Virus record (IMG/VR): IMGVR_UViG_3300030330_005067
Location: 1 to 36,857 of that record
Origin: a virus
Taxonomy: Duplodnaviria > Caudoviricetes
Direction: 5' to 3' (one strand)
DNA: 36,857 nt
In this document: positions 5,377 to 30,077 of the stretch, one piece after another
Layout of the letters: the number at the start of each line of letters is the position of its first letter
Position numbering within the stretch: the first letter of the stretch is position 1
Made by a program: the position numbers and the translations under genes
The notes under the pieces: generated by a model
Databases searched by the model: none
Seen by the model: only the letters and a program-made list of their open reading frames with translations
What the model was told of the DNA's origin: nothing

Positions 5377-5820
5377 TTAATCCTCTGGCTCTGGCTGTGT
5401 CGGTAGCCACTGATCAACCACCTCAGGCAACTTTACCTCGTCGTCATTGGCTGGGTGTTCAAAGCCATTGAGGACGCTAAGACGCTCGATAATAGCAAAC
5501 TGCAAAGCCGCTTGTTGTTCTCTCAATAGTTGCATCTGTATGTTTGCATCTCTGAGACGCGCTATAAGTGCAGCTCTATCAGACTCTTGAAATGCTAGTT
5601 TATCCTTAAGGTCCTCAACTTCAGATGGATCACGACCGCTGGCTATAGCAATCATTGAAGAGATTGAACCTGTTATCATACCGAGTATTCCCACGAGTAC
5701 ATCACGATTCTCATCTACTATACTAACTCTGGCTAAGAAGACAATCAACCCCATCACGAGCAACATAAAGAAGATTGAGAACCACCACCCACGTTTATTT
5801 TTTTCATGATCTTCATTCAT
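5377..5820 (-). CDS. Membrane protein, 2 predicted TM helices plus coiled coil
   Basis: WWFSIFFMLLVMGLIVFLA and VLVGILGMITGSISSMIAIA hydrophobic segments, then a heptad-rich helix; start overlaps the cyclase stop by 8 nt. Confidence 0.7.
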   Translation of the reverse strand: MNEDHEKNKRGWWFSIFFMLLVMGLIVFLARVSIVDENRDVLVGILGMITGSISSMIAIASGRDPSEVEDLKDKLAFQESDRAALIARLRDANIQMQLLREQQAALQFAIIERLSVLNGFEHPANDDEVKLPEVVDQWLPTQPEPED

Positions 5821-6577
5821 TCCACCACTCCTTAAGCCATTGTTTAATAAAAGGGTAAAGTAAACAGATGATATACCCTAAGCTCAACCAAAAGGATCGC
5901 CACAGTATCCACCATGCCCACTCTTTAAGTCTTCTATGTTTAGCTTTAGATTTAATCTTACCGGGTCCGCCTATCCTCTTAACCTTCTCATTACCCTCAG
6001 GAGGCTGTAGTGATTCGATGGTGACACCCACCGCATAAATGGTCTGAGGTTGTCTGACACCTTTAAACTGATAGAGACCAACACAAGCATATCTAGTACC
6101 CTTAGGTGTATGGGGATTAGCCCGGCCTTTAATCACTTGAAAAGCTTGTTTAGTTAGCAGCACTTGACCAGCTCTACACATCGACATAGTTCTAGCCGCT
6201 AAGTTCTTACTTAGTCCCTCTAGTTCAATCGGTTTGGCTCCTGAGAGCACTAGTAACTCATGCTGAGTTACTTCAATCACTTGGCCCCAATGGATACCGA
6301 TTCTAGCTTCTAAATGTGTTTTAGCTGGTATTGTCTTCTGATAGTTGAGAGCAAAGTTGAGAGCATCAATAGGACGTTCAAACGATAGAAGAAAACCATC
6401 GGACCTATCTATTTCTCGACCGTTAAACTTGTAGAGCATAGAACGGCTAAGCCTATCATGATATTGTAACCATTCAGCCGCTTTCATTGCACCCACTCGT
6501 CTTACAAAGTCGGTTGAGCCAATGAGGTCTAGTAATACAATGGCTAACAGTCTTTCTTGATAATGCTCTTGCTCCAC
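5813..6577 (-). CDS. Class III (adenylate/guanylate-type) nucleotide cyclase with C-terminal TM anchor
   Basis: LLDLIGST (D17), DRSDG (D60), ARIGIHWG, NLAAR (N125/R129), GQVLL and FKG motifs; C-terminal WAWWILWRSFWLSLGYIICLLYPF. Confidence 0.9.
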   Translation of the reverse strand: MEQEHYQERLLAIVLLDLIGSTDFVRRVGAMKAAEWLQYHDRLSRSMLYKFNGREIDRSDGFLLSFERPIDALNFALNYQKTIPAKTHLEARIGIHWGQVIEVTQHELLVLSGAKPIELEGLSKNLAARTMSMCRAGQVLLTKQAFQVIKGRANPHTPKGTRYACVGLYQFKGVRQPQTIYAVGVTIESLQPPEGNEKVKRIGGPGKIKSKAKHRRLKEWAWWILWRSFWLSLGYIICLLYPFIKQWLKEWWNE

Positions 6578-9977: not shown

Positions 9978-10257
9978 TTCTAACCTCTATCATTTGTTTC
10001 CGGCTAAGCAATATATCACGCTCGATAAACACCCTCTGACCAGCCAAGCTCACAACCACCATATCTAAATTCCGAATCTTCTTAGACTGCCTAATAAACT
10101 TGTCCTCTCCTATCCTCCAATTAGGATGGAGTAGAGTAACCTTAGTAAACTGTGGCCAAGTGATTTCACCAGGTGGTTTATTCTTCCACCTTAGATATCT
10201 GGGATTAACAAACACTACCTCTCTGGCTAGATATAACTCAGTCCCTGCGCTGACCAT
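9970..10257 (-). CDS. Hypothetical protein
   Basis: ORF track 9970..10284; ATG at 10257 (MVSAG) is the more likely start given the upstream ORF. Confidence 0.6.
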   Translation of the reverse strand: MVSAGTELYLAREVVFVNPRYLRWKNKPPGEITWPQFTKVTLLHPNWRIGEDKFIRQSKKIRNLDMVVVSLAGQRVFIERDILLSRKQMIEVRNG

Positions 10258-10405
10258 GCCTAGCCTCTTGCAACACTTTCTCAATGTGGCTCATGAGTTC
10301 TTCAGAGTGTTTAGCTATCTTAGCATCATGATCTTTAGCAGAGAGTACGATTAACTTTTTTAAGCGCTCTAGTATTTGGATGGTGTCGTCTTTTCGCTCG
10401 CTCAT
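10238..10405 (-). CDS. Small hypothetical helical protein, 55 aa (not in ORF track)
   Basis: MSERKDDTIQILERLKKLIVLSAKDHDAKIAKHSEELMSHIEKVLQEARHGQRRD; ATG overlaps the upstream stop (TAATG). Confidence 0.65.
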   Translation of the reverse strand: MSERKDDTIQILERLKKLIVLSAKDHDAKIAKHSEELMSHIEKVLQEARHGQRRD

Positions 10406-11979
10406 TATTTACGCCCTAAGTGATTAATATCTATTTGCCTAAGAACACAAGCTCGCGCCAGGCTCATGGCTGAATCCTTTTCTACTTTACTTAGATGGGG
10501 ATGCCCTGAAAGCATTAGAAGAAAGCTAGACAAGTCAACTTCAACCCCGTTTATGGAGATGTAGCTAGGTTTATCAAATAGTAGAGTTTGTCCTGATTTA
10601 TCTGTGACAACATCTGGCTTAACTTCTAGCTTAGGCTCTGGCTTAGCTTTTGGCTTAGCTTTTGGCTTAGGCTCTGGCTTAACTTCTGGCTTAGGCTCTG
10701 GCTTAGCTTTTGGCTTAGCTTTTGGCTTAGCTATGGAATGAATAGGGAAATGCTTACAAGCTGTGCTGTAGGGGGTAACAGGTGCGATTGTCCTTGAAAT
10801 AGCCCTAGCTAAAAATATATATTTTTTAAGATTGTTTTCTTTTAAACACTCCAAAAAATAATGTAAATAAGATGGCCCCGCATAACCATAAGCAAACGCA
10901 GAATAAGCAACTGTGTGACTAAAACGAGAGCTCAAAAGCTTTCTGAGGTTGAGTGCCTCTACTAACTTTGAGAATAAAGTAAATGTTATCTCTTTTGGTA
11001 GTGAGTTAGATAAGTTTAAATTATCTAAATCAACTTCTAATGCGTACTCTTTGCAGATTCTAAAACCATTATCAGAAATATAAAGCACCTTGCTGTTTTT
11101 TACCATAGGCCACAATAAATTATAAAGGAGAACATAGCGTTTTTTGTTATCAAGCTGAAGTTTATCTCTTATCTTTTTTTCTGAACTCAAGAGGCCCATT
11201 AAGCTCCAAGCCCCACCACGCGATGAAATCTCAGAATCAGCCAGTGTTTCTATTATGTCTTTGGCTTTATATAAACCAAGAAGATCAGCGCTTAACTTAG
11301 TTATTCTAAAATCTTTTCTAATATACTTCTCATATGGCTTTAATGAGTCAGAATCATCTAGCTTAGGCTCTGGCTTAGCTTCTGGCTTAGGTAGTTGAGG
11401 TAGTTCTCTTTTAGCTTTAACTAGCGAGGTGATAAAGCTACACCCTCTAGTCAAGAACTCTTTTATATCTAGCCTATGATATTCACCCTGTTTATCATAT
11501 TTATTAAAGTGATGAAGTATCACGCCATCATATTCAGATAAATAATCCACGTATGTGAATCTTTCCTTTTCAGTTTTTGGCGGGTTTAGTCTGTGTGCTT
11601 GATATTCTTTGGCACACTCGTGTTGATGCTCAACATCATTGCTGTATACTCCTACAAGGAGAAATAGTTCACCATCATGAGTATTCTTCCCAGCCAAAAG
11701 CCCTTTATGATCTGTCAAAGAACCCTCGACCAAATATCTAGATTCCTCAAACGGTGAGGATGAATATATATCCAGATTAAGAAAATTTCTATCCATCTGC
11801 CTAGTTGATTTAACTTGAATAAAAATATTCTTTTTAATAGCAATATCAACGTGAGGAAAAGTTGACTTAATTGGTCTAGAACCTTCTGTTCTAGTGTGTA
11901 CAAGCAATTCTCTAACAGCGTCCTCAAAAGCCATCCCACATTCGGCGGCTAAACTTTTTTTATTAAGTCGTGCGTTCAA
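10405..11979 (-). CDS. Putative PD-(D/E)xK-fold nuclease with Pro/Lys-rich linkers
   Basis: G.AFE helix followed by VD(x8)QVKS; TTG start with AAGGAG RBS; visibly AT-richer than the structural genes. Confidence 0.55.
   Translation of the reverse strand: MNARLNKKSLAAECGMAFEDAVRELLVHTRTEGSRPIKSTFPHVDIAIKKNIFIQVKSTRQMDRNFLNLDIYSSSPFEESRYLVEGSLTDHKGLLAGKNTHDGELFLLVGVYSNDVEHQHECAKEYQAHRLNPPKTEKERFTYVDYLSEYDGVILHHFNKYDKQGEYHRLDIKEFLTRGCSFITSLVKAKRELPQLPKPEAKPEPKLDDSDSLKPYEKYIRKDFRITKLSADLLGLYKAKDIIETLADSEISSRGGAWSLMGLLSSEKKIRDKLQLDNKKRYVLLYNLLWPMVKNSKVLYISDNGFRICKEYALEVDLDNLNLSNSLPKEITFTLFSKLVEALNLRKLLSSRFSHTVAYSAFAYGYAGPSYLHYFLECLKENNLKKYIFLARAISRTIAPVTPYSTACKHFPIHSIAKPKAKPKAKPEPKPEVKPEPKPKAKPKAKPEPKLEVKPDVVTDKSGQTLLFDKPSYISINGVEVDLSSFLLMLSGHPHLSKVEKDSAMSLARACVLRQIDINHLGRK
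10614..10732 (-). repeat. 12-bp-unit tandem repeat (KPKA/KPEP) with a ~60-bp higher-order duplication
   Basis: Repeated GGCTTAGCTTTT / GGCTTAGGCTCT units. Confidence 0.9.
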
Positions 11980-11996
11980 AGTAAGTCTCCTTTTAA

Positions 11997-12425
11997 TTAG
12001 TTACCCCATTGAGGTGGCATAAGCTCACCTGGATTAGTCCACTGATTATTCTGTGCAGCTGGTGACTGATTCCAGTCTCCTGAGTGCTCTGGTTTTGGGT
12101 CTAGTGATCGCCATTTATTAGCGATAATTTCCCATCGTCTAGTGTTGGGCTCATCTGGGTTTGGTGCATAGCTCTTTAGACTGCCCTCGATATAAACTTT
12201 AGAGCCTTTCTTAAGCTGTGATACTGCTCTATCTGCTGATTGCCCCCACACCTTAATATTGTGCCATTCAGTAGTTTTCTCCCATCTACCATCTTTCTGA
12301 TAATTCTCAGATGTAGCTACTGAAAAGTAAGCGTATTGTTTGCCGTTATTGGTTACTCTTAGCTCCGGAGCTTTGCCAAGATTCCCAACTAATGTAATCG
12401 TGTTAATCATTCTTTCGTCTTCCAA
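11997..12425 (-). CDS. ssb: Single-stranded DNA-binding protein
   Basis: INTITLVGNLG, FSVATSE, TEWHNIKVWG and LKKGSKVYIEG motifs; likely start at MIN (12410). Confidence 0.95.
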   Translation of the reverse strand: MEDERMINTITLVGNLGKAPELRVTNNGKQYAYFSVATSENYQKDGRWEKTTEWHNIKVWGQSADRAVSQLKKGSKVYIEGSLKSYAPNPDEPNTRRWEIIANKWRSLDPKPEHSGDWNQSPAAQNNQWTNPGELMPPQWGN

Positions 12426-12603
12426 TTCGTCTTGAGATCACTTGAACACAAGCCCCACCTCTAGCTCTAGTCTCTCGATACTCTAGTAGTACCTCTCTGA
12501 CTAGTGCAGCGCGTGAACATTGATGAGAGTTAGCCGCTGACTTTAGCCAGGCGTATTCATCGGGTGTTAAGCGTAGTCCTACAACTTTTGTGAGTGACTC
12601 CAT
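12403..12603 (-). CDS. Ribbon-helix-helix (CopG/MobC-like) DNA-binding protein
   Basis: VVGLRLTPDEY..LK.AA.....SRAALVRE pattern; AAGGAG RBS. Confidence 0.7.
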   Translation of the reverse strand: MESLTKVVGLRLTPDEYAWLKSAANSHQCSRAALVREVLLEYRETRARGGACVQVISRRIGRRKND

Positions 12604-12623
12604 TTGTGTCTCTCCTTATAAAA

Positions 12624-12694
12624 TTGACCTCAGACTTTAGGGTCTCTCTCTAAACATTTAATACAGAAAATATAATAAATGAGTCTGAGGTCAA
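12624..12694 (-). other. 13-bp perfect inverted repeat (5' leader hairpin)
   Basis: TTGACCTCAGACT (12624-12636) / AGTCTGAGGTCAA (12682-12694), 45-nt loop. Confidence 0.8.
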
Positions 12695-12698
12695 GGCC

Positions 12699-12742
12699 AT
12701 CATAACAGCCTCAAAAGTTGAGTCAATAAATTGTTTACAATT
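12699..12742 (-). promoter_or_regulatory. Promoter P1 with palindromic operator box
   Basis: TTGACT-16 bp-TATGAT with extended -10 TG; 27-bp box at 12716-12742. Confidence 0.65.
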
Positions 12743-12936
12743 AAACGAATCCTCATCACAGCCTAGCTATAATATAAAGTTTCAAACTAGATCTTTTCGA
12801 TCTTTGGCCGGCTTAAAACTCTATATCAAACCCCCACAAAGCTTGCAGGCAAAAGGGGAAAGTGGACGACAAACTAAGCTGTGATGAGGTATCCAAACCA
12901 CAAAATGACAAAAGCAAGTGCTTAAGTACCTTATTG

Positions 12937-12981
12937 ACTATATAACAGATTAATAGTTGAGTCAACAAATCGTTTACAATT
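12937..12981 (-). promoter_or_regulatory. Promoter P2 with second copy of the operator box
   Basis: TTGACT-17 bp-TATAGT; box at 12955-12981 matches 12716-12742 at 25/27. Confidence 0.65.
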
Positions 12982-13192
12982 CTTTCAGTACTACAGAAAA
13001 ATAGAGGTGAGTCTAGATCACCAGCCAGATAATTAGCTCACCAGGTGTTACCGTCTCATCACTCGATTTGTGAGATAAGTGTATTGAGTCCGCTTAACCT
13101 TCATTGTTCCTTAGAACGTTAAAAGAAAAGAGTGAGTGACAATAGGGTAACTTACTAATGATGCCCCATGAGCTTATCTGGTGTCAACACAT

Positions 13193-13232
13193 AAAAAAAG
13201 CCAGTAGAACCCATATGAAACTACTGGCTTTT
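13193..13232 (-). terminator. Rho-independent terminator (possibly bidirectional)
   Basis: AAAAGCCAGTAG / CTACTGGCTTTT stem; 7-U tail on the minus strand. Confidence 0.8.
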
Positions 13233-13269
13233 AGTAACTCTCAAGGGGAATGAGACTCACTCTGAACAC
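13193..13269 (-). ncRNA. Candidate trans-acting sRNA
   Basis: TATACT -10 at 13276-13281; 5' seed complementary to two translation-initiation regions; ends at the terminator. Confidence 0.5.
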
Positions 13270-13285
13270 ATAAGTAGTATACTAA

Positions 13286-13591
13286 TCAAGTACAGCTGTA
13301 AAGAATCATTCTAGTTATAGAGCCGTCCTCTCTCTCTCTGTATGTTGCCAGAACTGCACCATAGTACAAGTTAACACAGTGAGCTGAGAAGTTCTGACTA
13401 CGTGAGAACTTTGGTAGCTCTCTAATCTGTTGAGCGTCCCCTTGAATTAGTTTCCATGTCCATTGGCCAGAGCCTACCAAGTAAGCAGATGACAAGACCT
13501 CAATGTCATGGTGAGAATCAACGATATAAACATCTACAAAGAAATCTTTGGTTATATAGTGGTATGGTCCCTCGATCATCTTAAACCCCAC
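13286..13591 (-). CDS. Hypothetical protein
   Basis: 101-aa ORF overlapping the end of the DnaC-like gene. Confidence 0.6.
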   Translation of the reverse strand: MGFKMIEGPYHYITKDFFVDVYIVDSHHDIEVLSSAYLVGSGQWTWKLIQGDAQQIRELPKFSRSQNFSAHCVNLYYGAVLATYREREDGSITRMILYSCT

Positions 13592-14514
13592 TTTGCCCTT
13601 AGTGCTTCACGATTTGGCCCAGTACGTCTACTCTGGCCTACCATCTGAATGGGTGTCAGCATCTGAAGTAAACGATCTTCACTAGCTCGATTAAGAAGAG
13701 TTGAGAATAGTTGCTGAGGATGAATATTAGTTGTCATGAGTACACAGAGCTGGCCACCTTGCCAATAATCATGGATCTTACCTATAATTTCGTTAGTCCT
13801 CGACACCATCCAAGCGGATTTGCTACCTGATCCACCTCTACCGCCTATCTCATCGAGTAATAGTATGGTCCTCCTCTTGTTGCCATAACCAAACAGCCAA
13901 TACTCGACCGGGTCTTTATGTCGCTTAGAATCGTAGTTGTCTTTGATCTCCTCGAGGAGTTTGTCATGGGTCGAGTAGATAACGCGATAACCAGCGAGAC
14001 AAGCCCACCTGGCCACAGCATAGAGTATAGAGCTCTTACCGTTACCTGGCTGGCCAAACATAAAAGCACCTGGTCCCTGATTGTTTTGAGGCTCCATCAT
14101 GTGGCTGATGAGCTGGTTGATGACTTGCTCTTGAAGTGGATTATCCCACTCATACTTATCTAGATGCATGTTCACAGCACCAGCAGGTAAACTGAGCCTA
14201 TTTAGAGCTTTAATTCGTCTACGTGGTATCTCGCAATAAGGGCACATCCTTGTAGTAGTACGATCTACTCTCAAGAAGCCATCATCACAACGACCACAAT
14301 AATCAGGTAAAGTGACTGTAAAGCGTGGTGCTTTGCGCTCTACCATGTCATTGTCTTCTAAGTTCTGCCCGGTAAGATGGCTGTAATCTTTGAGTGGTGC
14401 TGAAAGTTTCTTAGTCGAGCTTCTCAGTTTACTCATAGCTTTAATGTCTTTAATCTGCTGATTAATAGCATTGAGTGTTTTAGGGTCGCCTAGTTTTACA
14501 AATCCATGTGTCAT
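13576..14514 (-). CDS. DnaC/IstB-like ATPase (helicase loader)
   Basis: CxxC...CPxC zinc finger, Walker A GQPGNGKS, Walker B LLLDE, sensor TTN; follows the initiator. Confidence 0.85.
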   Translation of the reverse strand: MTHGFVKLGDPKTLNAINQQIKDIKAMSKLRSSTKKLSAPLKDYSHLTGQNLEDNDMVERKAPRFTVTLPDYCGRCDDGFLRVDRTTTRMCPYCEIPRRRIKALNRLSLPAGAVNMHLDKYEWDNPLQEQVINQLISHMMEPQNNQGPGAFMFGQPGNGKSSILYAVARWACLAGYRVIYSTHDKLLEEIKDNYDSKRHKDPVEYWLFGYGNKRRTILLLDEIGGRGGSGSKSAWMVSRTNEIIGKIHDYWQGGQLCVLMTTNIHPQQLFSTLLNRASEDRLLQMLTPIQMVGQSRRTGPNREALRAKWGLR

Positions 14515-14525
14515 AATTCGTCTCC

Positions 14526-15365
14526 TTAGAATCTTTTATATGGATCATAGCTAGTCTCTTTTCGGGTAGAGCTAGCTTCTGTTTGATAACGCCAATTTAA
14601 TTTAGCTGATAAGCGTCTGTTGTTCATTACAGCTCTGACTAAGAATTCCTCAGTATGTCCATCAGCTTTTAGCTCTGCTACTACTTCAGCTTCTTTATCA
14701 GAGAGATTTAAATCATCTAGTGTTTTAGGGTCAGCTGGTATGTCACTCATGACAGTGCTGTCATCACTGACAATAGTAGAATCAATCTCAGCTGTATTAT
14801 TATTGTTTTCCTTAGTTGTCTCCTTAGTTGTTATATCCTTAGTTGTATTGTAGCTCACTTCGAGCTTAGGGGTCTGCGCTCTATTTGGGCTAAGGGTACT
14901 CTCCTTTTGAACTAACTGGTTAGCCTGCTTTGAGCTTTCTTTGTCCTCGATCGCTCTATTTGGGCTAACCTCCTCAATCATAACCTTAGCTCTATTTGGG
15001 CTAACATCTTTAATTGTGGTCTTAGCTCTATTTGGGCTAACCTTTCTAGGCTGGTAAGAATCCACAGAGTTATCTAGAACCATATTTATGTTTAAGACTG
15101 TAACAGCTCGATGATGATAAACGGTTCCTTTTGGGCTCTCTCTTCTCTGTGCTGTCCTCGATATATAACCCAGCTCTACAAGTTCTTTAAAAGCTCGTCT
15201 TACTGATGAGGCTTTCATGTTCATGTCTTTACTTACATCATTAGAACTTACCTGGCCTTCCAGCGTATCCCAATTAACACGCAGAAGCACACCCAGAAGA
15301 GTTAGCTTAGTGTTTGGCTTAAGTGGTAGTGAATAGACTTTGCGTCTAATATCAATCTCATTCAT
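14526..15365 (-). CDS. Replication initiator (lambda O-like, N-terminal winged HTH)
   Basis: SVRRAFKELVELGYI wHTH; internal DNA repeats; upstream of the loader. Confidence 0.8.
   Translation of the reverse strand: MNEIDIRRKVYSLPLKPNTKLTLLGVLLRVNWDTLEGQVSSNDVSKDMNMKASSVRRAFKELVELGYISRTAQRRESPKGTVYHHRAVTVLNINMVLDNSVDSYQPRKVSPNRAKTTIKDVSPNRAKVMIEEVSPNRAIEDKESSKQANQLVQKESTLSPNRAQTPKLEVSYNTTKDITTKETTKENNNNTAEIDSTIVSDDSTVMSDIPADPKTLDDLNLSDKEAEVVAELKADGHTEEFLVRAVMNNRRLSAKLNWRYQTEASSTRKETSYDPYKRF
14809..15040. repeat. Putative replication origin: 4 iterons plus three 11-mers
   Basis: GCTCTATTTGGGCTAA at 14878, 14953, 14989 and 15025; TCCTTAGTTGT at 14809, 14821 and 14836, next to an AT-rich run. 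Confidence 0.75.
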
Positions 15366-15378
15366 GAAAGAATCCCCT

Positions 15379-15452
15379 TATCACAAAAGTGTGATATTTA
15401 ACTTGACAGTGATTTTTTATTATGTCAATAGTTATATCACAACAATGTGATA
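15379..15452. promoter_or_regulatory. Symmetric divergent control region with two operators
   Basis: TATCACA-N4-TGTGATA at 15379-15396 and 15435-15452, flanking TTGACA (15403) and TGTCAA (15423). Confidence 0.75.
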
Positions 15453-15464
15453 AAAGGTAATTAC

Positions 15465-15896
15465 ATGATTGAGTGTAAGAAAGATCTTATTAAGAATAAA
15501 ATAGGCATAGGTAAACTTGCTTTGTGTGTAGAGATAGACCGCTCATATCTTAGCCGGATTATCTCAGGTAAAGACATATGTGATAAGAAGTTAGCCGTTA
15601 ACCTCTCACGCTTTGCCAACGTATGGACCGAGTACGATGTATTTGAGCCAAACGATTTTAACCCTAACCTAAACCCTAACCTTAAGAATGTATGTGATGA
15701 GGTTTGCTTTGTGGTTACTGACCGCGTCAACGGTCGGAATCGCTCTGTTAATACATACACATCTAAAGAACTACATGAGCTTTATGCAGATGACATAGAC
15801 TTCATTCAGGCTCTACATAACTGTGTGAGTGTTGATGGTGTCCACTGTGTACATAACCGCTATTTAATTGAACTAGGAGATAATGACAATGACTGA
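15465..15896 (+). CDS. XRE/Cro-like HTH transcriptional regulator
   Basis: GKLALCVEIDRSYLSRIISGK HTH; ATG at 15465 after AAGGT. Confidence 0.7.
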   Translation: MIECKKDLIKNKIGIGKLALCVEIDRSYLSRIISGKDICDKKLAVNLSRFANVWTEYDVFEPNDFNPNLNPNLKNVCDEVCFVVTDRVNGRNRSVNTYTSKELHELYADDIDFIQALHNCVSVDGVHCVHNRYLIELGDNDND

Positions 15897-16173
15897 GAAT
15901 CTAACTAACAAACAACTATTGACCCTGTGGGCTTTATGCTACATCGCCTTCTTTGGCTCGATTATCGCTTATGCTGCTAACTGTGCTCCTGTTGATGATG
16001 CGCGTGAGTGTGCAATTCAAATAAAGGACCGTCTTTCACCATATCAATCACGTGTGTTGATGGGGCATGGTTACACTTACAGATCAGCTTTATCATGGTG
16101 CCATCGTAATGAAGACCATCAAGAGCTTATTGATCAAGCTCAATCAACTATCCCAATGTTCCCAGCTCACTAA
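15883..16173 (+). CDS. Hypothetical membrane-anchored protein
   Basis: N-terminal hydrophobic helix LLTLWALCYIAFFGSIIAYAA; AGGAG RBS. Confidence 0.6.
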   Translation: MTMTENLTNKQLLTLWALCYIAFFGSIIAYAANCAPVDDARECAIQIKDRLSPYQSRVLMGHGYTYRSALSWCHRNEDHQELIDQAQSTIPMFPAH

Positions 16174-16190
16174 GAAAAGAGAGACTTACT

Positions 16191-17321
16191 ATGAACGCTA
16201 TTTACAAACCAGTACCTAAATCAATTTGGACCCCGTCCGATGTACAAGAGGCCATGAATATGGCTCAAGTGCTCGAACCAGCCAACCCACAAAACTTACT
16301 ACTTATTCACGCTGCACATGGCCATCACTTCAATGGTGATATGGGGCTTTGCATGAGTCAAGGCTACTGTCTAAAAGGTAAGCCCACCCTTAGCGCTGAT
16401 GCAATGGCCGGTATTTGTAGACGTTCTGGCCTAATGCGATATATGCAAATCACTGAATGGGATGAAACTAAATGTACAATGATCATGGCACGCAATGATG
16501 AGCCGGCTGATATTGTGCATACATTCACTTTTACCATCCAGATGGCTAAAAAGCAAGGGTTAACTCGTAACCGCAACTGGGATCAGATGCCTAAGCAGAT
16601 GTTAAGAGCTCGATGCCTTACAATGGCTCTGAGAGCAACTTTCCCGGATGCAGTTAGTGGCATTTACTCACCCGATGAGATTGCTGATAACACCCAGATG
16701 AACGACCATGAACGGGCCATGTTATCAGCTCATAGTCTTGGTGAGGAGTTGCACACCTCACAGCCACCTAGATCACAGCCACCAGCTGCACAGCCTCACC
16801 CAACCCAACACCAGGCACAGCAACAATCACAGCCTCCAATGATGAAGCCAGAACCAAATCGCTTACATGACTTCTCAACTATGGAGGGATGGCAAGCCGC
16901 TCTAGAATCCACTGGGATTGACTTGGAAGAAATTGTCGACTGTGTACAGCGATGTTCTCAAACACCCGTCAAGCTTATGTCACCACAGCATAGAGAATTT
17001 TTCTTTTATCGCTATGTGATGAGCCGGGCCACACGAACAATACCCCATGATCCTACCTGGTGGAGCGCAAAGCATAACGAGATTCAGAAGATGAGAGCAG
17101 AGGTTGAAAAGGACTATCCACTGTTAAAAGGCAACCAGCCGAGAACCTATGGTCATTTGTTCCAGCATGGTGCTTGGCACGAAACACTAAGAGTAGCTCA
17201 TCAGCTCGATAGAGAAGGCCAGAAGAAAGCACTAGGCATACTTGGGACTATGCACCCGGACGAGTGGACCGCCTATGATTTAGTGTGTTCATTTAAAGAT
17301 CAAGATAGCAGTAGTACTTAA
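16191..17321 (+). CDS. RecT/Redbeta-like single-strand annealing protein with C-terminal extension
   Basis: KGKPTLSA, AKKQGL, NW..MPKQMLRAR and FPDAVSGIYSPDE motifs; Q/P-rich linker. Confidence 0.75.
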   Translation: MNAIYKPVPKSIWTPSDVQEAMNMAQVLEPANPQNLLLIHAAHGHHFNGDMGLCMSQGYCLKGKPTLSADAMAGICRRSGLMRYMQITEWDETKCTMIMARNDEPADIVHTFTFTIQMAKKQGLTRNRNWDQMPKQMLRARCLTMALRATFPDAVSGIYSPDEIADNTQMNDHERAMLSAHSLGEELHTSQPPRSQPPAAQPHPTQHQAQQQSQPPMMKPEPNRLHDFSTMEGWQAALESTGIDLEEIVDCVQRCSQTPVKLMSPQHREFFFYRYVMSRATRTIPHDPTWWSAKHNEIQKMRAEVEKDYPLLKGNQPRTYGHLFQHGAWHETLRVAHQLDREGQKKALGILGTMHPDEWTAYDLVCSFKDQDSSST

Positions 17322-28878: not shown

Positions 28879-30077
28879 AAGTGTTCAAGCTCCATTGCTA
28901 CCGGTACCCGTCGCCTTAACCTATTGGGATAAGTCAGCTCAAACTCTGAAGTGATCATCGAGCACCTTAAACGCCCATACTCGCCATTGTCCTCGCTGGT
29001 GTAGAGGTCATCATAAGCATATTGAGTACCGGTGACTTGAGCAGTTCTTAAAGCCCGCCTAGAATCACCCCATGCCTGATAAAAGTTGACGCGCTCACCA
29101 GCTGAACAGAGTGGTAACCATCTGTTTGAGAAGTGCTTATAGTCATCAACTAGGTCTAGTAGTCCGTCTAGATCAAAGTTAAGCATAGAGCTAACATATG
29201 ACCCTATGTGATTAGAGACATAACCACCGCCTATTTTGCGCTTACTCTGACTCTCATTCATCACTTTAAGGTGGTGAAATTGATAGGGCCTCGATGGTAT
29301 GAGAACGCCTGCTATCTTATGAGTTGAAGTTAGGATAGAGTAGACACCATCCGCTACCGGACTCTCTAAGCCGGTGAAGCCTAGCGTCTCTCTGGTTGTG
29401 TTATCATTCCAAGTAATATCACCCAGAGAGGTCAGATAGTAACATCTACAGTATCCATCATTGGTTACTAACCATGTGATATTACTGTTACTGAGTGCAG
29501 CCTGATCTAGTTTCTCTATCGAGTCTAAACCAAATGAGTCAGCATCTGAAACGCTAGCACGATCTCTAATAAATACACTCACGTCTTGAATCTGTAACTT
29601 AATAGCCGGAAAGTTGAATTGGTTAGCACCTCCTGATTCGTCAATTTGATATGTAGTATCAGAGAGATCTAGTAAACCTCTTGACCAATCATGGGGGGCA
29701 ACCACTACATAATCAGAGCCGGACGCGCTCGCTGTGATAGTCGATGATCCAAAGCCTAAAGGGTCATCACTCCCCGTCTTAGTGAGTGTAAATTGTACAT
29801 TGGCTTTGATCTCTATCTTATCGTTGCTCGTTATTGATGCTGACCAGGTGGATCCAAAGGTTTTAGTGTTTTGTAGTTGGTTGGTGGCCGCGTTGGTGGT
29901 GTTAGACGTGCGACCATTGAGGAGAAATACAGCATCTTCATACACTCCTTCACCAGTGCCAAAGGTTGGCACGTTGACTGCCGTTGAACCTCTTGTAAAT
30001 AGCTTGGTGGCTGATTGATCTCTCATATCATAGGCTGTGAGTAGTCCAAATTGTGGAGCCGGATTATTTAAAGGCAT
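28875..30077 (-). CDS. Minor tail protein (distal-tail position)
   Basis: Immediately downstream of the tape measure. Confidence 0.55.
   Translation of the reverse strand: MPLNNPAPQFGLLTAYDMRDQSATKLFTRGSTAVNVPTFGTGEGVYEDAVFLLNGRTSNTTNAATNQLQNTKTFGSTWSASITSNDKIEIKANVQFTLTKTGSDDPLGFGSSTITASASGSDYVVVAPHDWSRGLLDLSDTTYQIDESGGANQFNFPAIKLQIQDVSVFIRDRASVSDADSFGLDSIEKLDQAALSNSNITWLVTNDGYCRCYYLTSLGDITWNDNTTRETLGFTGLESPVADGVYSILTSTHKIAGVLIPSRPYQFHHLKVMNESQSKRKIGGGYVSNHIGSYVSSMLNFDLDGLLDLVDDYKHFSNRWLPLCSAGERVNFYQAWGDSRRALRTAQVTGTQYAYDDLYTSEDNGEYGRLRCSMITSEFELTYPNRLRRRVPVAMELEHL

Follow-up and report, generated by a model that had tools for sequence, protein, structure and literature searches.

A candidate multi-target antisense RNA at the 3' end of a phage replication operon, with seeds that match lineage-specific tags at early gene starts

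The c4 antisense RNA of phages P1 and P7 has the antirepressor operon as its target. The accessible text of its description presents c4 as a phage-encoded RNA of about 77 nt that acts in trans on phage mRNA and covers the ribosome-binding site, with variable pairing regions that give phage-specific recognition (PMC5320573), features that the candidate RNA described below would share. GcvB, in the accessible part of its report, silences many mRNAs with one seed through A/C-rich elements at the start region (PMC3879156). The rac prophage encodes the RalR/RalA pair, in which, by the portion of the source available, a trans-encoded RNA has a 16-nt match to a nuclease mRNA (PMC4041452). Cluster K mycobacteriophages carry start-associated sequences (SAS), asymmetric tags that overlap the ribosome-binding sites of non-structural genes; one copy is reversed and lies away from any start, and the available parts of papers from 2011, 2024 and 2025 state that their function is unknown (PMC3203893, PMC11373665, PMC12699233). 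A 2025 review, in its accessible sections, describes phage RNAs that act on phage genes as mostly single-target or cis-antisense (PMC12197685). Our literature search, with most subscription journals and supplements outside its coverage, found no phage sRNA that acts on several early-gene starts.

We analyzed a whole virus record of 36,857 bases, henceforth referred to as the window. Based on protein-family matches, it encodes a capsid protein, portal, terminase, ssb, a ribbon-helix-helix gene, a DnaC-like loader, a lambda-O-like initiator, an HTH gene and a RecT-like annealase; the RecT-like label had been proposed in an earlier note made from the sequence alone and is borne out by matches to PF03837 and phrog_561. 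A scan of 41 of its proteins recovered no integrase. The record occurs at full length in two marine metagenomes. No close named phage was found for this genome, and a search of 185,579 genomes recovered no close prophage, the best match reaching 38% identity over short stretches. We gathered about 160 related loci via RecT alignment and 17 via DnaC alignment, across which gene order is well kept.

The operon of interest (13286..15365, minus strand) comprises the initiator gene repO (14526-15365), the loader gene dnaC (13576-14514) and o101, which encodes about 100 amino acids (13286-13591), in the order repO-dnaC-o101. A repeated iteron-like motif lies inside the initiator gene (14905-15046), and an 18-nt operator-like pair (15379-15396 and 15435-15452) sits between the divergent early promoters. 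In some sister lineages, o101 and the HTH gene (15447-15896) are inverted relative to dnaC and repO. Elsewhere in the genome, a class III nucleotide cyclase-like gene with a weak PF00211 match (5813-6577, minus strand) is widespread in the family at about 60-70% identity.

The earlier note had reported an 18-nt motif in three copies, and we recovered all three: 11972-11989 on the minus strand, and 16181-16198 and 13252-13269 on the plus strand. Shuffled controls gave a mean of 0.04 matches and reached three copies in 0 of 100 cases. The first copy (target 1) marks the start of whichever gene follows ssb, a position that we call the cargo slot, and the second (target 2) marks the start of the RecT-like annealase gene (16191-17321, plus strand). 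The pairing proposed for the minus strand of the third copy held as well. It extends over 18 of 18 positions at the start at 11989 (15 Watson-Crick and three G-U pairs) and over 17 of 18 at the recT start at 16181. When G-U pairs were allowed, this minus-strand 18-mer had only two partners in the genome with at least 16 of 18 positions paired, besides itself. A longest-helix test was passed narrowly, with 16 Watson-Crick pairs (0 of 150 shuffles reach 16) against a shuffle maximum of 15 and a value of 15 on the opposite strand. An exposed seed is complementary to starts at unlinked loci, as is expected of a trans-acting sRNA.

The candidate RNA (RNA1, about 77 nt, 13193..13269, minus strand), as delimited from the sequence, lies in the 3' region of the repO-dnaC-o101 operon, between the o101 stop and the terminator. 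The predicted fold of the 77-nt element consists of a free 5' end, a hairpin and a terminator (-29.2 kcal/mol, z -5.8). The seed (13252..13269, minus strand), defined by complementarity and fold, is divided between the first two of these parts. Eight free bases pair with the start codon and first codons of the targets, and the remaining 10 of the 18 pair with the ribosome-binding site and form the 5' arm of the hairpin (13233..13261, minus strand), which has a C-rich loop, UUCCCCU, and was overlooked in the earlier note. The 3' arm of this hairpin is almost a copy of the target tag and leaves a mismatch at a place where the target itself would pair perfectly, an arrangement that would suit entry through the free end followed by strand displacement. 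In three relatives the hairpin changes are one-sided only and the pairing is kept. The intrinsic terminator was confirmed as a terminator-like 12-bp stem with arms at 13196-13207 and 13221-13232 and a U-tract on the minus strand (13193..13232 in all); the T-tract is weaker on the plus side.

The 5' end of RNA1 may lie anywhere in 13267-13276. The TATACT at 13281-13276 that had been put forward as its -10 element is present in the window but is kept neither in L004 nor in L003/L207, so that the end would derive either from an own promoter or from processing of a 3' UTR. A possible weak promoter (13274..13302, minus strand) overlaps the last o101 codons. Here, TTTACA stands 15 nt from TATACT, in the window only, and 17 nt from TACTAC, a combination with a TGTACA/TATTAC counterpart in L004 and L207; relatives retain this second register, which, however, overlaps codons that are themselves conserved. 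The promoter hexamers near RNA1 are weak and partly coding-constrained. An Rfam scan of 11900-16300 gave seven weak matches (E 0.7-4.7), none of them over the element, and scans of L207, L208 and L210 gave no family at gathering score.

We ranked the potential targets of RNA1. Plain duplex energy and ungapped or gapped G-U-permissive scores were noisy over 47-56 distant loci, where only the window, L004 and, weakly, L013 stood out. An accessibility-aware scan was therefore needed, in which opening costs are included and the RNA is compared with all gene starts of the same genome. The earlier note had predicted that the post-ssb start and recT would lead such a scan, and they ranked first and second of 44 in the window, with energies of -18.0 and -10.5; the lead of recT over third place (-9.8) is small. 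When the whole 638-nt non-coding stretch was scanned, the same two targets ranked first and second of 45. Among the 25 starts of L002, recT ranked first and target 1 third, and target 1 ranked second of 22 in L207, where the contig lacks recT. These three loci and L004 belong to one lineage, hereafter lineage A. Four of the five lineage A substitutions in the seed or target 1 keep the pair and one breaks an end pair; a single 1-nt deletion yields a bulge. The seed has no listed change in four further runs, and the element is conserved about as well as the genome background (roughly 90% identical).

Eight genomes carry o101 behind dnaC on the same strand, and they form three lineages: A (the window, L002/L004 and L207), B (L208, L209 and L211) and C (L086 and L210). 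Compared with the window, lineages B and C are about 77% identical in the terminase and about 45% in DnaC. For each genome we scanned the non-coding stretch from o101 to the next promoter against all of that genome's own starts. Most of the top matches within a lineage come from a single short segment, whose sequence is different in each of the three lineages. At the equivalent place, the seeds of B and C match their own dnaC, post-ssb and recT-region starts. The top four of 32 starts in L208 are dnaC (-22.0), an HNH cargo gene after ssb (-18.4), the gene before recT (-17.6) and recT (-17.0), and dnaC also comes first in L209 (-27.4, of 25 starts) and L211 (-18.5, of 14). The third seed, that of lineage C, accounts for the top four of 32 starts in L086 and the top two of 18 in L210, in both genomes with dnaC first and the post-ssb gene next.

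We then compared RNAs and targets within and between lineages. In a cross test against dnaC, post-ssb and recT starts, a target set that was picked after seeing the data, RNAs and starts of the same lineage averaged -19.5 kcal/mol (22 cells, -11.5 to -28.6), those of different lineages averaged -11.3 kcal/mol (42 cells, -7.5 to -17.0) and the opposite strand gave -5 to -11; because of the post hoc choice of targets, and because B and C share part of the motif, the lineages count as only three partly independent cases. With a crude G-U-permissive score, non-cognate pairs reached values as high as cognate ones and lineage C was not distinct from background. The operon strand folds more stably in all eight genomes. 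The seed of every lineage is located within or ahead of a weak hairpin, with a strong hairpin after it. An extended -10-like motif is conserved immediately before the seed hairpin in lineage B, and lineage C has its own TTGAC-type promoter, with a variable 17-nt spacer, 171 nt ahead of the seed. Covariation of seed and targets, which the earlier note had proposed as a check, is thus visible as matched turnover of seed and tag across the three lineages, but no two-sided compensatory change was found within lineage A (0 of 25 pairs in consensus folds of three sequences, a comparison with little power).

The gene behind target 1 varies. In the window it is a 524-aa cargo gene (10405-11979, minus strand), which the earlier note had called a nuclease. 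That label survives as a lead only: the protein has a DpnI-like feature match (0.92, with a low shared count of 148) and a possible PD-(D/E)xK motif near its start, read by eye, but no Pfam match, and it otherwise has only a weak match to a PHROG of unknown function and a structure model with a pLDDT of 40. One search for similar proteins gave four others and another gave one, with one relative cluster. In L004, DNA identity extends through the final base of the motif and no further, and the same start is followed by another gene, of 451 aa. The cargo is absent from L207, where RNA1 is intact and the same start opens a 55-aa gene; in the window, this gene lies behind the cargo (10238..10405, minus strand). 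It is a top target in lineage C, and its protein has no atlas match above 0.76. A contig of run X3 diverges into still another sequence behind the target 1 start. Across the family, the slot contents scanned (26 proteins) comprise six GHKL ATPases, one HNH protein, one ERCC4-like protein and many unknowns. The hypervariable slot (10405-11979 in the window, and also in L006-L144) includes GHKL/MORC-like ATPases of about 655 aa and HNH, ERCC4-like, ATPase-GNAT and sigma-like proteins. The putative nuclease is swappable, dispensable cargo. Since the cargo is replaced or missing behind a start that is kept, the conserved target is the start site and not the gene.

Shared start tags are common in the family, so the similarity of targets 1 and 2 in the window is a family-wide property, comparable to the SAS of cluster K mycobacteriophages (PMC3203893). 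When recT and post-ssb starts were compared, pairs from one genome were more similar than pairs from different lineages in 12 of 15 lineages, counting that of the window (Wilcoxon p 0.012). In 6 of these 15, at least one genome has the post-ssb start as the best match for its recT start. Tag matches extend up to 32 bases (L157), and the tag marks other early starts too. Tags can also exist without a detected RNA, since L012/L157 and L033/L144 share start tags without a visible antisense copy, none being found in the non-coding interval scanned in L012/L157. The tag of L035 and L115 is a short tandem repeat for which no antisense copy was found. A usable non-coding stretch was present in 24 of 28 distant representatives, and in most of these it contained no such seed; only L008, L102 and L074 reached -14 or better. 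In the non-coding stretch behind dnaC of L008 and L102, the recT and dnaC leaders rank first and second through different segments, and these loci may represent a fourth lineage with a similar RNA.

A second candidate RNA (RNA2, about 150 nt, 12996..13187, minus strand) is suggested by a conserved promoter, the fold and a terminator-like end. Its promoter, TTGACA-18-CATCAT, lies just beyond the RNA1 terminator, with hexamers that are kept and a spacer that varies, and the stretch is structured (z -3.3). The initial 13 nt of RNA2 (13152-13140) are complementary to the region of the ssb stop (11999-12011), immediately upstream of target 1, and this region is the best target of RNA2 in the window (-14.1) and in L002 (-12.3). 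The same 5' bases also pair within their own stem, which makes RNA2 the weaker candidate. An eight-codon micro-ORF (13132-13158, plus strand) lies opposite the RNA2 seed and shows a TAA/TGA stop swap and two synonymous changes in relatives; it may be due to chance. Nearby, a 30-nt direct repeat (12713-12742 and 12952-12981) with a leftward promoter and a palindrome is a promoter-flanked insertion slot: L004 and contigs of two runs lack the 239 bases that separate the repeat copies. The leader of the ribbon-helix-helix gene contains a hairpin (12603-12715) whose arms change together in L004 and L207.

Taken together, the locus probably encodes a multi-target antisense RNA that co-evolves with a lineage-specific start tag and brakes translation of early genes. 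A small RNA from the 3' end of the replication operon would pair with the tag of several early starts and block their translation. Its free 5' bases would land on the start codon and then oust the 3' arm of the hairpin, so that the Shine-Dalgarno sequence is covered and ribosomes cannot load on the tagged early starts. Being stable, the RNA would accumulate with early transcription and act as a delayed brake, or negative feedback, on recombination, replication-loading and cargo genes. The strong predicted targets are the post-ssb start and recT in lineage A, and dnaC, the post-ssb start, the gene before recT, recT and the HTH gene in lineages B and C. Genes inserted behind ssb would inherit this control because they take over the resident start and first codons.

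The earlier note had likewise proposed a trans-acting antisense RNA, and target ranking, strand-biased structure and the turnover of seeds and targets support that part of its reading. It had further likened the joint silencing of a potentially toxic nuclease and an annealase to the logic of RalR/RalA, a reading in which the RNA would be a type I antitoxin dedicated to a toxic nuclease, with recT as a side target. The best window target is indeed a possible nuclease, the L208 cargo targeted by the seed is an HNH protein, and several slot genes are nuclease- or GHKL-ATPase-like. However, the candidate RNA is unchanged where the nuclease gene is absent (L207) or replaced (L004), dnaC takes first place among the targets of lineages B and C, and the nuclease activity and toxicity of the cargo are putative. 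As the cargo is swappable, the comparison with RalA fails on this point; we rejected an antitoxin tied to one toxin gene and regard this part of the proposal as very improbable. A cis-acting attenuator is equally improbable. In that model, an early mRNA would bind the 5' arm of the hairpin and the freed 3' arm would serve as an anti-terminator, allowing read-through into ssb and the late genes. A truncated transcript with a blocked seed can form an alternative hairpin with the 5' arm of the terminator (-4.2 to -9.1 kcal/mol), but in the full-length RNA with the seed blocked the terminator still wins (-17.1), and we rejected the anti-terminator on folding energy. Moreover, the downstream genes have their own promoters and the layout differs in lineages B and C.

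Two further explanations dispense with a regulatory RNA. The early starts could have been copied or homogenized by recombination in a phage that has an annealase, leaving the third copy as an orphan plus-strand ribosome-binding site of a lost or inverted gene, or as a hairpin arm built from a copy of the tag. This fits the family-wide start tags and their within-genome likeness, the gene swaps that stop at the motif, the hairpin 3' arm, which accounts for 10 of the 18 seed bases, and the sister lineages in which o101, with a start of its own, is encoded on the other strand. Nevertheless, we consider it unlikely because the copy matches the current tag in three lineages with differing tags, no conserved plus-strand ORF was found after the copy, the differences between copy and tag are mostly G-U compatible, and the fold favors the antisense strand in eight of eight genomes. 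In the terminase tree, lineage A falls outside B, C and two lineages with inverted o101, in which the element was not seen; this suggests that the o101 inversion is derived and argues against a leftover ribosome-binding site, an inference that is limited by the mosaicism of phages. The copies could instead be binding sites of a phage protein, such as the ribbon-helix-helix protein (12403-12603), the HTH protein or an RNA-binding repressor, with the non-coding copy as operator or plus-strand decoy. Tandem-repeat tags without an antisense copy in distant lineages such as L035 and L115, and a GGA motif displayed in the plus-strand hairpin loop, would be in keeping with protein binding. This is quite unlikely, given that the motif is non-palindromic and extends into the first codons, that separate operator-like repeats (12713-12742/12952-12981 and 15379-15396/15435-15452) already flank the promoters, and that the plus-strand hairpin loses its G-U pairs (-20.3 against -29.2 or -30.5 kcal/mol for similar stretches).

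A broader and more doubtful extension of the antisense-RNA reading is a phage-wide lock-and-key layer, in which a private tag marks the starts of early genes, one stable RNA is complementary to that tag, and the pair drifts together between lineages. If so, it would time the shut-off of early translation, bring a captured cargo gene under control once the tagged start is taken over, and possibly extend the silencing to co-infecting phages from its own tag group. Such a scheme would also account for the SAS of cluster K mycobacteriophages, with their single reversed copy in a hairpin loop, and gives a concrete hypothesis for those sequences. We examined the Adephagia genome (JF704105) in this respect. 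Between positions 30,000 and 59,646 of the record, 15 of 16 SAS matches are forward. The single reversed SAS, at about 58,660-58,715 (L223:28660-28716), sits in the loop of a rightward-strand hairpin in the non-coding DNA that separates genes 92 and 93, and is antisense to the SAS when read rightward. The region is matched in 166 mycobacteriophage records. Across eight aligned phages, the loop is anti-SAS in three, a related C/U-rich sequence in two, deleted in one and different in two, and we take the reversed-SAS hairpin as a possible lead only.

If the main reading is right, a phage would have a new means of timing early genes and taming acquired ones, namely a multi-target RNA in co-evolution with a private tag, and the seeds and targets of the three lineages provide natural positive and negative pairs. 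Compared with the described systems, the pairing of RNA1 with target 1 (18 of 18 positions with three G-U pairs) is within the range of complementarity, about 16 nt or more, that characterizes RalA-like RNAs; RalR/RalA is one toxin and one antitoxin, whereas here the nuclease is dispensable and the candidate is multi-target. The SAS belong to an unrelated phage family and are unrelated in sequence, the window motif differing from the 13-bp consensus in the accessible text of PMC3203893 when compared by eye; they occur in 11-19 copies as against 2-5 looser copies here, where the tag changes between lineages together with its reverse copy. Rfam C4 gave no match at E up to 5 in 11900-16300. The c4 RNA has three stem-loops, with a' and b' loops, and is processed by RNase P, whereas RNA1 would have two hairpins and a free 5' end, and its predicted targets are several unlinked replication, recombination and cargo starts rather than an antirepressor operon. 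As with GcvB, the seeds of lineages B and C are rich in G/U and face leaders rich in ACA/ACC, but GcvB is a host regulator of amino-acid genes without sequence match to the candidate, whose pairing is 16-22 bp long and phage-private. By analogy, the candidate RNA would work like P1 c4 or GcvB while belonging to neither family.
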